Of a DNA stretch of 9,705 nt, positions 3,001 to 9,000 are shown one piece after another. This stretch comes from a virus. Taxonomy: Duplodnaviria > Heunggongvirae > Uroviricota > Caudoviricetes. The first letter of the stretch is position 1. Every line of letters begins with the position of its first letter. Location: positions 1 through 9,705 of IMG/VR virus record IMGVR_UViG_2529293038_000020. The stretch is one strand, 5' to 3'. Made by a program: the position numbers.

Positions 3001-6000
3001 GAAAACAGCCTCACGCAGCTGGTTGCTAAAAAAAATGATGAGCAGTCACTGGCCATATCCCAGGTGAGTCAGAAAGTGGACAACGTCAGTAGCGAACTCA
3101 CGCAAACGGTCAGTCAGAGTAATGAGGAGAATGCACGCCAGATTGCGCAGGTTCGTCAGTATGTGGATGAAAAAAGCAGTGAAATCATCTCGACGACAGA
3201 CAAAAAACTGGGCGAGCAGGAAGCAACAATCCAGCAGATACAAAAGGTTCAGACAGACACCAGTAATAACCTGAACAGTATGTGGGCCGTGAAACTGCAG
3301 CAGATGCAGGATGGTCGCCTTTACATTGCGGGTATCGGTGCCGGTATTGAGAATACCCCTGACGGTATGCAGAGTCAGGTGCTGCTGGCGGCAGACAGGA
3401 TTGCGTTCATTAATCCGGAGAACGGTAACACCACTCCAGCACTGGTCACGCAGGGGGGACAGACGTTTATCAATGAAGCGCTGATTAAGACCCTTATTGC
3501 TCCCACAATTACCAGCGGTGGCAGTCCTCCGGTATTTTCCCTGACATCAGACGGAAAGCTGACCGCTAAAAATGCGGATATCAGTGGCAGTGTGAATGCG
3601 AACGCCGGGACGCTCAACAATGTCACGGTAAATGAAAACTGTACGATTAAGGGCATGCTGGAGGCGACTCAGGTCAGAGGTGACTTCGTTAAAGCTGTAT
3701 CCAAATCATTTCCGAAACAGGCTGGTACATGGGGTAACACGGAAACACCAAACGGGACGGTTACAGTCACCATCAGCGATGATCATAACTTTGACCGTCA
3801 AATCATTATTCCGCCCATTATCTTTAACGGAATAGCGTATAGCTATCCGGGAAGTGGTAATAACCCGGGAGGTACAAGTTACACGGGTTATGGTTTTGAA
3901 GTTCGCAAAAACGGTGTATTAATCGCATCCAGAGAAACTAAAGGGGCCATTCCCGGTAGTTACAGTGCAGTTATTGATATGCCTAGTGGTGGTGGTAGCG
4001 TCACTCTGGAGTTTAAGATTTTCCAGAAAGGCAATCAGTGGGCAGGCAATATCACCGACTGTACGGTGATTGTGACCAAAAAAGCCGCTTCCGGCATCAG
4101 TATTCGTTGAAATTGTTATAACCCATATAAGGGCACCAGAAATGGTGCCTTTTTTATTGCAGAAAAGCGAGAGGTAATTATGCGTAAAGTTTGTGCAGCC
4201 ATTTTGTCCGCAGCCATCTGTCTGTCCGTATCCGGTGCGCCTGCATGGGCGTCTGAACATCAGTCCACACTGAGCGCGGGGTATCTTCATGCCCGGACGA
4301 ACGCTCCCGGTAGCGATAATCTTAACGGGATTAACGTGAAATACCGTTATGAATTTACGGACACGCTGGGGCTGGTGACGTCATTCAGCTATGCAGGAGA
4401 CAAGAATCGCCAGCTTACCCGTTACAGCGATACCCGCTGGCATGAAGATTCCGTGCGTAACCGCTGGTTCAGCGTGATGGCGGGGCCGTCTGTACGCGTG
4501 AATGAATGGTTCAGCGCGTATGCGATGGCGGGTGTGGCTTACAGCCGTGTGTCGACTTTCTCCGGGGATTATCTCCGCGTAACTGACAACAAGGGGAAAA
4601 CGCACGATGTGCTGACCGGAAGTGATGACGGTCGCCACAGCAACACGTCTCTGGCGTGGGGGGCTGGCGTGCAGTTTAACCCGACCGAATCCGTGGCCAT
4701 TGATATTGCTTATGAAGGCTCCGGCAGTGGTGACTGGCGCACTGACGGTTTCATCGTGGGTGTCGGTTATAAATTCTGATTAGCCAGGTAACACAGTGTT
4801 ATGACAGTCCGCCGGTTCAGGCGGGCTTTTTTGTGAGGTGAATATGGCAGTAAAGATTTCAGGTGTACTGAAAGACGGCACAGGAAAACCGGTACAGAAC
4901 TGCACAATCCAGCTGAAAGCAAAACGTAACAGTACCACGGTGGTGGTGAACACGCTGGCCTCAGAAAATCCGGATGAAGCCGGGCGTTACAGTATGGACG
5001 TTGAGTACGGTCAGTACAGCGTTATTCTGTTGGTGGAGGGATTCCCGCCGTCACATGCCGGGACCATCACCGTGTATGAAGATTCTCAACCCGGTACGCT
5101 GAATGATTTTCTCGGTGCCATGACGGAGGATGATGCCCGTCCGGAGGCACTGCGACGTTTTGAACTGATGGTGGAAGAGGCAGCGCGTCACGCTGAGGAG
5201 GCGAAGAAGAATGCCGGAGAGGCAGAGACGTCAGCGAGGAATGCGGGTATATCAGCCGGCCAGGCGGAAAAGAGTGCAGTAAATGCTGAGACTTCTGCAG
5301 GGGATGCATCGGAGTCAGCCCGGCAGGCGACGGAAAGTGCAGCCTCAGCAAAGCAGTCAGAGGATGCGTCCTCGTCCTCGGCTTCTGCGGCCGCTCAAAA
5401 AGCCAGTGAGTCATCACAAAGTGCAGCAGAAGCTGAATTGTCAAGAAAGACGGCAGAAAGTGCAGCCGGTAATGCATCCAGGGATGCAACGACCGCAGCA
5501 GAAAAAGCCCGGGAGTCAGCAGAAAGCGCACAGTCAGCGGAACAAAGCAGGATAGCGGCGGAAGACGCCGTAAACCGAATCCCCACCGTGGTGGGACCTC
5601 CCGGGCCAAAGGGAGAACCGGGGCCCGCGGGTCCTCAGGGGCCGAAGGGAGATAAAGGAGAGCGTGGCGACACCGGTCCTGTCGGGGCAACCGGTGAGCG
5701 GGGACCGGCAGGTGATGCTGGTCCGGCAGGCCCGCAGGGGCCGAAAGGCGACAGGGGAGAGCGGGGAGAGACCGGTCTGACGGGAAATGCAGGTCCACAG
5801 GGTCCAAAGGGAGATACCGGTGCGGCAGGTCCGGCAGGCCCACAGGGACCGAAAGGAGAAACAGGTGCGGCTGGCCCGGTGGGGGCAACCGGACCTCAGG
5901 GACCAAAGGGCGACCCGGGGGAGACACAAATCCGTTTTCGTCTGGGGCCGGCGAGCATTATTGAGACAAACAGCAATGGCTGGTTCCCGGGTACAGATGG

Positions 6001-9000
6001 CGCACTCATCACCGGACTGACCTTTCTTGACCCCAAAGATGCCACACAGGTTCAGGGTTTTTTTCAGCATTTGCAGGTCAGGTTTGGTGACGGGCCGTGG
6101 CAGGATGTTAAGGGGCTGGATGAAGTGGGCAGTGATACAGGCAGAACAGGAGAATGACATGAACGTACTAAAAAAACTTATGCAGCGTCTGTGCGGGTAC
6201 GGAAAGCATGATGACCGTGAACACGGGGAGTTACTTACAGCACAACTGCGTCTGGGGCCGGCAGACATCCTGGAGTCAGATGAGAATGGTATTATTCCGG
6301 AGCAGGCCAGGGTAATCACGCAGGTGGTGATACTGGATGCAGATAAAAAGCAGATACAGTGTGTGGTAAGACCGCTGCAAATCCTGCGTGCTGACGGGAC
6401 GTGGGAAAATATTGGCGGGATGAAATAGCCGACGGGTTCACAAAAAAACCGGAGTCCGGCTCCGGTTTTTGTTGTCATGCCATGGTGATGTTTGTTATGA
6501 CTCCCTGTGTTTGGAATGAATATTTAAATAGGGAGTTTTGTCATGCCATCATTAGTTTCAGGTATTCAATCATCCTCACTTTCCACCGGAATGCAGGTTC
6601 TTCGTGCTCAAATGGCCGCCAGTGGTGGTGGAGAAATTACAGTAGGCGGACAGACGGTTAGTATCACATATAGTGAAACGGATGGTCGCTTTCTGGCGAG
6701 TGGGGGCAATAACAGTTTGCTTTCTGGATTATTACTTACAGGGCTTAATGGTGGTCCTGAAGCGCTCAGGGATATAATGTTAAGAATGGTTTCAGGTTCA
6801 GGTAACACACAATCACATGGTGATATTGAGGGGAAAATATCACAATATAAGTTTTCGGTTAATACGCAGAGCCTTCAGTGCCCATCCGAGGCGGTTCGAT
6901 GCCCAATTATACTGGATAAGCCAGAAGAAGGTGTGTTTGTTAAAAATTCAGAAGATTCTTTGGTTTGTACCTTATTTGATTCGGTTTCTTTTTCTCATTT
7001 GGTTCGTGACGGTGGGAGGCACCCGCTAACACGAGAACCAATAACGTCATCAATGATTGTAAGTCCAGAACAATGTATTTATGACCAAGCCAAAGGAAAC
7101 TTTGTCATAAAGGATAAGTGAAATAAATATTACCCAAGCTATATGTTAACTGCCAGTTGCTTATATGAAATGCTACAGATGTTCAGGGTATAAGGATGTG
7201 GTAATAACACAGGTGGTGTACTGGATGCAGATAAAAAGCATATACAGTGAGTGGAGAGGCCGCTAATCAGTCGTGCTGACGGGGAAATATTGGCGGGATG
7301 AAATAGCCGACGAGTTCACAAAAACCGGAGTCCGGCTCCGGTTTTTGTTGTCATGTCCGGTGGATGTTTGTTAGGAAAGCAAAGATGGCAAAACTGCTGG
7401 AGGTTTTGTGGTTGAGTATGCCAATATAATTAATAGATTAAAGAGTTAGTTGTGAAGAAAATATGGATAAACAGGACGACGAATGCTTTCACCGATAAGG
7501 ACAACTTTCCATAACTCAGTAAATATAGTGCAGAGTTCACCCTGTCAAACGGTTTCTTTTGCAGGAAAGGAATATGAGTTAAAGGTCATTGATGAAAAAA
7601 CGCCTATTCTTTTTCAGTGGTTTGAACCTAATCCTGAACGATATAAGAAAGATGAGGTTCCAATAGTTAATACTAAGCAGCATCCCTATTTAGATAATGT
7701 CACAAATGCGGCAAGGATAGAGAGTGATCGTATGATAGGTATTTTTGTTGATGGCGATTTTTCAGTCAACCAAAAGACTGCTTTTTCAAAATTGGAACGA
7801 GATTTTGAAAATGTAATGATAATCTATCGGGAAGATGTTGACTTCAGTATGTATGACAGAAAACTATCAGATATTTATCATGATATTATATGTGAACAAA
7901 GGTTACGAACTGAAGACAAAAGAGATGAATACTTGTTGAATCTGTTAGAGAAAGAGCTGAGGGAAATTTCAAAGGCGCAGGATTCTTTGATTTCTATGTA
8001 TGCAAAGAAAAGAAATCATGCATGGTTTGATTTCTTCAGAAATTTAGCCTTATTAAAAGCAGGAGAGATATTCAGGTGCACATATAATACAAAGAATCAC
8101 GGTATTTCATTCGGGGAGGGGTGTATCTATCTTGATATGGATATGATACTTACAGGTAAGCTTGGTACAATATATGCTCCTGATGGAATTTCAATGCATG
8201 TGGATCGTCGTAATGATAGTGTAAATATTGAAAATAGTGCAATAATTGTTAACCGTAGTAATCATCCTGCTCTACTTGAGGGACTTTCTTTTATGCATAG
8301 TAAAGTAGATGCTCATCCATATTATGATGGTTTGGGGAAAGGAGTTAAGAAATATTTTAATTTTACACCATTACATAATTATAATCATTTTTGTGACTTT
8401 ATTGAGTTTAACCACCCTAATATAATCATGAACACAAGTCAGTATACATGCAGTTCATGGTAAATGAATTTGATATAGTTTATTTTGTTGTAATAAATGA
8501 TTTGCAGGGTATTAGATATAAACATGAAAATTCCCTCATTACAGTCCAACTTCAACTTTTCCGCCCCGGCAGGATACTCTGCTCCCATTGCTCCTAATCG
8601 TGCTGAAAATGCCTATGCGGATTACGTTTTGGATATAGGTAAGCGAATACCACTTTCCGCAGCAGATTTAAGCAACGTATACGAAAGTGTAATACGCGCC
8701 GTCCATGACAGCCGTAGCAGGCTTATCGATCAGCATACAGTCGATATGATCGGCAACACTGTACTTGATGCTTTGAGCCGATCACAGACATTTCGTGATG
8801 CCGTAAGCTATGGCATTCATAATGAGAAGGTACACATTGGTTGCATTAAATACAGAAACGAATACGAGCTTAACGAAGAATCTTCTGTCAAAATTGATGA
8901 TATTCAATCACTAACCTGTAACGAATTATATGAATATGATGTCGGGCAAGAGCCAATTTTCCCCATTTGCGAAGCAGGAGAAAACGATAACGAAGAGCCT

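Follow-up and report, generated by a model that had tools for sequence, protein, structure and literature searches.

The window analysed here, i.e., the whole 9,705-nt stretch at positions 1 to 9,705 of the IMG/VR virus record IMGVR_UViG_2529293038_000020 (Caudoviricetes), comprises the distal end of a lambdoid prophage's tail module, followed by virulence cargo, as determined by a survey of open reading frames (ORFs) and Pfam domains. We focus on a two-gene unit within it: a tail fibre gene at 4844-6157 (+), which extends from ATG to TGA and encodes 437 amino acids (aa), and a stand-alone ORF at 6159-6428 (+), the 89-aa product of which belongs to the same family (PF06820, here PfC) as the C-terminal end of the fibre. 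The fibre gene is located after J and lom, between terminator-like hairpins, and is translationally juxtaposed to its 89-aa PfC paralogue. The hairpin after lom (4806-4827 (+)) has 8 pairs, 6 of them G-C, followed by TTTTTT, and the fibre ribosome-binding site (RBS), GAGG at 4834-4837 (+), lies 6 nt upstream of the ATG at 4844; a homologous lom-side terminator and fibre RBS are annotated in the phage 434 record (OL657226). The unit is closed by a hairpin at 6449-6470 (+) (CCGGAG-TCCGG-CTCCGG, then TTTTT), which was read from the sequence; a simple hairpin scanner missed it, and phage 434 has a terminator annotated at the homologous site. The fibre coding sequence of 1314 nt is annotated alike in RefSeq (pDCE7-1, E2348/69) and in the phage 434 record. 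The results presented below make it very probable that the product of this gene is a lambdoid prophage's side (lateral) tail fibre, of the EPclA type.

The fibre consists of four consecutive parts. The first, PfN (4844-5242 (+), aa 1-133), is a tail-docking N-terminal domain of the lambda-Stf type: PF08400 matches aa 1-133 with an E-value of 7.8e-69 (230 bits versus a Pfam cut-off of 26.6), and aa 1-94 match the collar domain of Ur-lambda Stf (PDB 9e7m_Ta / 9mgh; E 9.9e-53). In the Ur-lambda Stf structure, twelve copies of the N-terminal domain, arranged in four trimers, wrap the junction of the tail tube and the tip (PMC12617516). The second part, PCoil (5243-5593 (+), aa 134-250), is the Ala/Ser/Glu-rich segment that the initial annotation had described as low-complexity, and the composition of residues 121-250 (29% Ala, 19% Ser and 12% Glu) agrees with that description; its DNA contains loose repeats of 63-123 nt (families D3 and D5). 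Counted from the PfN end at 133 to the collagen start at 251, PCoil has 117 residues, in agreement with the ~116 aa that characterise EPclA. The third part, Col (5594-5926 (+), aa 251-361), is a run of 37 uninterrupted G-X-Y triplets with five GPQGPKG motifs and Pro at 18 of the 37 X positions (PF01391 Collagen, E 3e-18). A collagen stretch had been correctly recognised at this place, and its size is to be corrected from 36 triplets and 109 residues to 37 triplets and 111 aa. The fourth part, the fibre-type PfC (5927-6154 (+)), matches PF06820 at aa 363-426 (E 1.1e-36, model positions 1-64 of 64); it is indeed a small C-terminal knob, of 76 aa and not the ~80 residues first proposed. All three Pfam families score far over their curated cut-offs, and neither a Pf2 repeat (PF03406) nor another tip domain was found on the fibre in the Pfam scan.

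The description of the fibre as a chimera with a lambda-Stf anchor was borne out by both the PF08400 and PDB matches and the DNA comparison. Homology to K-12 stfR and to thousands of stf genes ends at query nt 414, i.e., window nt 5193 (~aa 117); therefore, the fibre gene is a genuine mosaic. The same arrangement is known from the literature. Ghosh et al. (2012, PLoS One 7:e37872; PMC3368898) defined EPclA as PfN-PCoil-Col-PfC in prophages of E. coli O157:H7, with ECs2717 and Z0982 as examples, and their tables give a total of 437 aa, with 116 aa for PCoil and 111 aa for Col. The window fibre has the same domain order, total length, Col length and place in a lambdoid tail module, and the EPclA copies of O157 and Stx phages are ~95% identical to the window DNA, the differences being allelic only. 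Thus, this fibre is an ordinary copy of a published EPclA-type gene, and its whole architecture was already known. It should be noted that recombinant EPclA of the Sakai strain has been characterised in the same study (PMC3368898): it is a homotrimer according to analytical ultracentrifugation and size-exclusion chromatography with multi-angle laser light scattering; its G-X-Y tract forms a true collagen triple helix, with a circular dichroism maximum at 220 nm and melting at 42 C; its Ala/Ser segment is a trimeric coiled coil that serves as a trimerisation module; and its PfC trimerises alone and, acting from the C-terminal side, nucleates the collagen helix anew. By electron microscopy (EM), EPclA is a hinged dumbbell of ~55-62 nm when extended, the coiled coil and the collagen helix making up its hinged stalk.

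The perfect periodicity initially attributed to the collagen tract holds in the protein but not in the DNA, where repeat units are 61-86% identical and the only tandem is a 45-nt unit present in two copies at 82% identity. We studied variation in 80 viral-contig loci around relatives of the small ORF, a sample biased to close relatives (at least 94% protein identity), and counted triplets in 44 full-length fibres, including that of the window. Thirty-six of the 44 copies have 37 triplets, three have 36, three have 38, and single copies have 30 and 27. The 36- and 38-triplet variants result from the loss or gain of one GPA triplet in a short GGTCCGGCA tandem, or from the loss of one GER triplet. 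In the 30-triplet variant, exactly 21 aa (63 nt) between two GPQGPKGD motifs are gone, and 63 nt is one of the DNA repeat spacings. The repeat number is thus variable among relatives, as had been anticipated, and EPclA collagen lengths published for other prophages, i.e., 63, 78, 81, 111, 114 and 144 aa (21-48 triplets), are always multiples of three apart (PMC3368898). We suggest that collagen length may shift when single triplets are dropped or added and when the stretch from one repeated GPQGPKGD motif to another is deleted, which looks like occasional slippage combined with unequal recombination, and not like a high-rate contingency locus. The imperfect repeats of the collagen DNA do not imply phase variation of the classical kind, with slipped-strand events at high frequency, and the mechanism first put forward, slippage or recombinational repeat gain and loss, is retained in its occasional form. 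The triplet-level detail of these indels (27-38 triplets, single-triplet and motif-to-motif events) is added here; length variation itself was already documented.

The statement that no tail fibre assembly gene follows the fibre was also confirmed. Neither a tfa-like gene nor a remnant was found in the window by Pfam, PHROGs and NCBIfam scans, including Caudo_TAP; the best tblastn match of lambda Tfa to the window, obtained with an approximate query, had an E-value of 0.59; and no tfa follows the fibre in the annotation of phage 434 or E2348/69 either. In pDCE7-1 (locus L002, NZ_CP090612.1), a 36-aa C-terminal relic of tfa is present at 8927-9037, between nleC and nleH, downstream of the fibre cassette. 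This relic suggests an ancestral stf-tfa pair, the middle of which may have been replaced by Col-PfC, the small ORF and effector cargo. In the proposed model, the fibre would not need a Tfa-type chaperone, because PfC and the coiled coil would provide trimerisation and chain registration.

The small ORF had been recognised as a paralogue of the fibre C-terminus, and this is correct: PF06820 matches its aa 28-89 with an E-value of 9.9e-35 (119 bits versus a gathering cut-off of 25), and the two sequences are 37% identical over 62 aa (E 4e-14). The ORF consists of a 27-aa N-terminal extension and a PfC core, its ATG lies 1 nt past the fibre stop codon, and AGGAG is located 6 nt upstream of the ATG. 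In PHROGs, it corresponds to phrog_576 (89 of 89 positions) and phrog_13758, both labelled 'tail fiber protein'. The search of the small ORF against chaperone families suggested initially gave a negative result, since no match to Caudo_TAP, Peptidase_S74 or any other chaperone family was obtained in Pfam, PHROGs or NCBIfam, leaving PF06820 only. In all 69 scorable loci, the ORF has exactly 89 codons and a 1-nt gap to the fibre. The ratio of nonsynonymous to synonymous polymorphism (pN/pS) is 0.106 for the whole ORF, 0.048 for codons 28-89, which form the PfC core, and 0.38 for the N-terminal extension; thus, the small ORF is under strong purifying selection. The fibre-borne PfC has a pN/pS of 0.23, a value corrected for two frameshifted copies that had inflated the estimate to 0.40, and its replacements cluster at ~9 positions in mosaic combinations.

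The two PfC types are strictly separated. Fibre-type PfC is found on all 46 collagen-bearing PfC proteins retrieved from a database of 5.8 billion proteins and on all 75 scorable collagen ORFs in the loci, whereas all 97 sequences of the stand-alone type have no collagen; the only exception is a single-sequence chimera, P0017. This partition bears on the proposal of Mondal et al. (2016; PMC5155283), who suggested for the homologous ORF68 of phage Sp5 (89 aa) a reservoir of fibre variation, i.e., a silent copy that could be swapped onto the fibre to change its specificity. A possible site of exchange is an exact 14-nt repeat, CGTCTGGGGCCGGC, which codes for RLGPA; each PfC domain has a copy at its start (5939-5952 (+) and 6249-6262), and the codon phase of the two copies is identical. 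Two database proteins would fit such an exchange, namely P0017, a chimera of the two PfC types, and P0107, a deletion joining the collagen region to a stand-alone core. However, the fibre reading frame is not kept across the junction in P0107, and the 14-mer is the only long identity between the two PfC copies; it forms the first 14 nt of repeat family D4 (71% DNA identity over 41 nt), and outside it the similarity is too low for efficient homologous exchange. The stand-alone type was found on 0 of 46 collagen proteins and 0 of 75 collagen ORFs. An exact-pattern search for the predicted PfC junctions in 2.9 million viral contigs, in both directions, yielded none, with limited power, as no more than 21 of 83 control loci were recovered by the right half of the pattern; therefore, we rely on the protein-level partition instead. 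In addition, an RBS and a start codon of its own, 89 intact codons in 69 loci and a core pN/pS of 0.05 are unexpected for an unexpressed cassette. We consider a silent reservoir improbable: the fact that the small-ORF type of PfC is never on a fibre argues against such a mere reservoir role, and the intact 89 codons, the fixed 1-nt gap, purifying selection and type separation together argue, at the sequence level, for a working protein and not a silent cassette.

In a separate group of proteins (P0078, P0090, P0092, P0072 and P0093), the stand-alone PfC core is fused to unrelated N-termini, among them a lambda CII-like sequence, a tail protein K-like sequence and the first 55 aa of J, with breakpoints clustered around small-ORF codons 17-27. 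These fusions could be deletions of decaying prophages or chimeras of draft assemblies.

Another conceivable arrangement is a single fusion product of the fibre gene and the small ORF, made when the ribosome or the transcribing polymerase slips at a T7 run (6055-6061), the result being a fibre with an alternative or tandem PfC end. In 66 of 70 loci, no stop codon interrupts the small-ORF frame in the 46 codons upstream of the ATG, the T7 run lies within this overlap in the window, and a remote relative (P0164) has tandem PfC-like modules. Yet, the T-run is just 3 nt long in 32 of the 70 loci, a shift at the T7 run would cut PfC in half, Mondal et al. found no frameshift signal (PMC5155283), and a stop-free stretch of ~46 codons in an overlapping G+C-rich frame is not improbable by chance. 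We rejected slippage fusion at the T7 run, as the T-run is not conserved; both the slippage itself and a fibre end produced in this way appear extremely unlikely.

The same features of the small ORF have to be compared with the expectation for a dedicated assembly chaperone that replaces Tfa, transiently templates trimerisation of the fibre PfC and then leaves. The position of the ORF is that of tfa in lambda, the 1-nt coupling and purifying selection would fit, and the phage 434 record (OL657226) labels it 'tail fiber assembly chaperone', with no supporting note. On the other hand, besides the lack of similarity to Caudo_TAP or another chaperone family, recombinant EPclA, Col-PfC and PfC alone fold and trimerise in laboratory E. 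coli (PMC3368898), and K-12 genomes match the first 414 query nt only, i.e., that background has no PfC genes. Furthermore, Sp5 ORF68 is non-essential for plaque formation and lysogenisation, while the fibre ORF67 is essential (PMC5155283). Since EPclA trimerises alone, K-12 has no PfC genes and the Sp5 knockout is viable, a strict chaperone role is unlikely. With somewhat more weight, and still tentatively, the 89-aa protein, a paralogue of the trimerisation knob of the fibre, might represent a new kind of accessory that caps or binds the collagen fibre at its distal end or fixes the register of its chains, a task that proteins of the Tfa/gp38 type perform for beta-structured fibres; conservation, 1-nt coupling and PfC type separation are compatible with this possibility, and the dispensability of the Sp5 homologue in the laboratory limits how central such a role is. 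All things considered, the most likely role of the small PfC-only protein is that of an accessory associated with the fibre and dispensable to the phage, e.g., one that would pair with the PfC knob, cap it, or help in assembly.

The structure predictions suggested in the initial annotation were run for both PfC proteins. AlphaFold2 monomer models of the fibre PfC and of the small ORF are mostly beta and have low confidence (pLDDT 65.5 / pTM 0.44 and pLDDT 54.5 / pTM 0.37, respectively); a Foldseek search of the models against the PDB gave no match, a profile search of PfC against PDB sequences gave chance-level matches only (E of at least 0.12), and a PDB search found no solved PfC structure. 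Similarly, the PfC domain of gp61 was neither resolved nor confidently predicted in the phi24B preprint. As PfC hardly occurs outside Escherichia, its alignments have little depth. A full HMMER scan of 1.84 billion representative proteins yielded 92 PfC matches, mostly E. coli fragments. Three remote relatives outside Escherichia were identified, i.e., P0164, with four tandem PfC-like modules that each lead directly into G-X-Y and, after them, a long collagen tract; P0183, in which the second half of PfC is repeated directly before G-X-Y; and P0187, a diverged stand-alone PfC. The tandem modules next to collagen in P0164 and P0183 suggest that PfC is a small beta module used beside collagen for trimer registration, in agreement with EPclA biochemistry, and hint that it serves this purpose generally, in other fibre-like proteins too. 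Four giant repetitive proteins (P0136, P0173, P0174 and P0181), in which only a short 'DG.W.DV'-type motif was matched, were judged not demonstrably homologous.

The window gene resembles Stf of lambda and Ur-lambda in the N-terminal collar domain, the Ala/Ser-rich proximal shaft and the place after lom, and differs in having no Pf2 repeat, no gp37-like distal tip and no tfa; instead, it has a collagen shaft and a 64-aa PfC tip. The EPclB fibre of the Stx2 phages Sp5, 933W and phi24B (ECs1228, gp61) shares with it a PfN-like anchor, PCoil, collagen and PfC, as well as an 89-aa PfC-only gene after the fibre (ORF68 in Sp5), whereas it has two collagen tracts around a Pf2 repeat, 645 aa, and a short podovirus tail, and is essential. 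In Sp5, this fibre (ORF67) has been located on the tail by immuno-EM and shown to be essential (PMC5155283), and in phi24B gp61 forms six lateral trimers (phi24B preprint). Phage 434 (OL657226, CPT_434_23 and CPT_434_24) has a two-gene cassette that is 96% identical in DNA to that of the window; the gene order, J-lom-fibre-small ORF, is shared, and in both cases nle effector genes or remnants of them come next.

The remaining genes of the window are as follows. It starts with the 3' end of gene I (ORF/Pfam survey), followed by J, the central tail fibre gene (396-4110), and lom (4180-4779; PF06316). J is split over three reading frames: aa 1-66 of phage 434 J are matched at 396-593, aa 67-649 at 593-2341, and aa 648-1137 at 2335-4107. 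In the closest relative, E2348/69, J is likewise annotated as 'frameshifted'; phage 434, in contrast, is viable and has an intact J. Directly downstream of the fibre cassette lies type III effector cargo, with nleG (6543-7121; NleG-family U-box effector, 192 aa), nleB2 (7483-8463; NleB2 arginine glycosyltransferase, 326 aa) and, from 8521, nleC (Peptidase_M85), which stops after ~229 of ~330 residues. A fragment of an IS66-family transposase (9237-9617 (-)) is found immediately beyond nleC, similarity to E2348/69 ends at nt 9206, and an IS insertion appears to have truncated nleC. The G+C fraction falls from ~0.6 in the fibre to 0.32-0.42 in the nleG/nleB2 region (6543-8463), a drop typical of moron-like DNA inserted where a tail operon ends. 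As J is frameshifted, the prophage is probably defective, although the fibre gene and the small ORF are intact, and the fibre is probably a still-intact passenger.

An intact fibre gene in a prophage with a broken J, adjoining type III effector cargo, is also what might be expected if the collagen-like protein served the bacterium, e.g., as a host-tissue adhesin similar to the streptococcal Scl proteins, and weak NCBIfam matches to the collagen adhesins Scl1, Scl2 and Lcl were indeed obtained. However, these matches are far under the curated cut-offs and cover the G-X-Y tract only. The N-terminus is a tail-docking domain that does not resemble a signal peptide by eye (no predictor was run), expression of known EPclA is tied to phage induction (PMC3368898), and the EPclB homologue is located on the tail (PMC5155283). 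Use of the fibre by the bacterium is therefore, in our opinion, very improbable.

The EPclA-type side fibre remains by far the better supported reading. By analogy with Stf of Ur-lambda, the distal PfC knob would contact the cell surface and speed or broaden adsorption, while the small PfC-only protein would work as a dispensable accessory of the fibre. Several observations weigh against this view. No receptor or adsorption phenotype has been reported for any EPclA-type fibre, and the authors of the phi24B preprint argue against binding of the homologous gp61 domain, PfC, to BamA. The knob models have low confidence and no fold match in the PDB, and tandem PfC spacers beside collagen are as easily reconciled with a role in registration as with a receptor-binding tip. 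Sp5 forms plaques and lysogens without its small ORF (PMC5155283), and a search for virion proteomics evidence of the small protein in phi24B found no mention of it in the text of the preprint. Finally, with J broken into three frames, fibre function in this particular genome is doubtful.

The cassette is widespread in E. coli. At least 80% of it is present in 693 of 5426 complete E. coli genomes (~13%), with up to 18 matching places per genome, and in 141 phage records; phages cdtI, 434, BP-4795, 2851 and 2B8 and many Stx phages carry it at 95-98% DNA identity. The closest complete-genome relative of the window is a prophage of the enteropathogenic E. coli strain E2348/69, at 98% over most of the window. 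When one genome per species was searched, PfC was found in E. albertii only, plus two tiny contigs, namely a 3.8-kb contig of a 'Clostridiales' metagenome-assembled genome (L084, SFGJ01000067.1) and a 725-bp contig of Xanthomonas pisi (L086, NZ_JPLE01000138.1), the PfC sequences of which are 99% and 93% identical, respectively, to the E. coli fibre PfC at the protein level. Contamination of the two assemblies with E. coli prophage DNA is the almost certain source of these contigs. In the 420-kb 'plasmid' pDCE7-1, the fibre-bearing prophage adjoins zinT and msrQ, which are normally chromosomal genes, and what the record shows may be part of a chromosome, or a misassembly, rather than a genuine plasmid.

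The small ORF was already noted in 2016, as Sp5 ORF68; the types of triplet indels, the intactness of the small ORF and the selection acting on it, and the strict separation of PfC types are added here. EPclA-type fibres are also useful as a case, found in nature, of a bacterial collagen that is thermostable and unhydroxylated. Phage 434 provides a convenient K-12 system for the small and tractable question of what the conserved PfC-only partner does. More generally, EPclA-type fibres sit on the prophages by which genes for Shiga toxin and type III effectors pass from one E. coli strain to another and, with practical relevance that is modest, the receptor and host range of the fibre bear on the spread of virulence genes.

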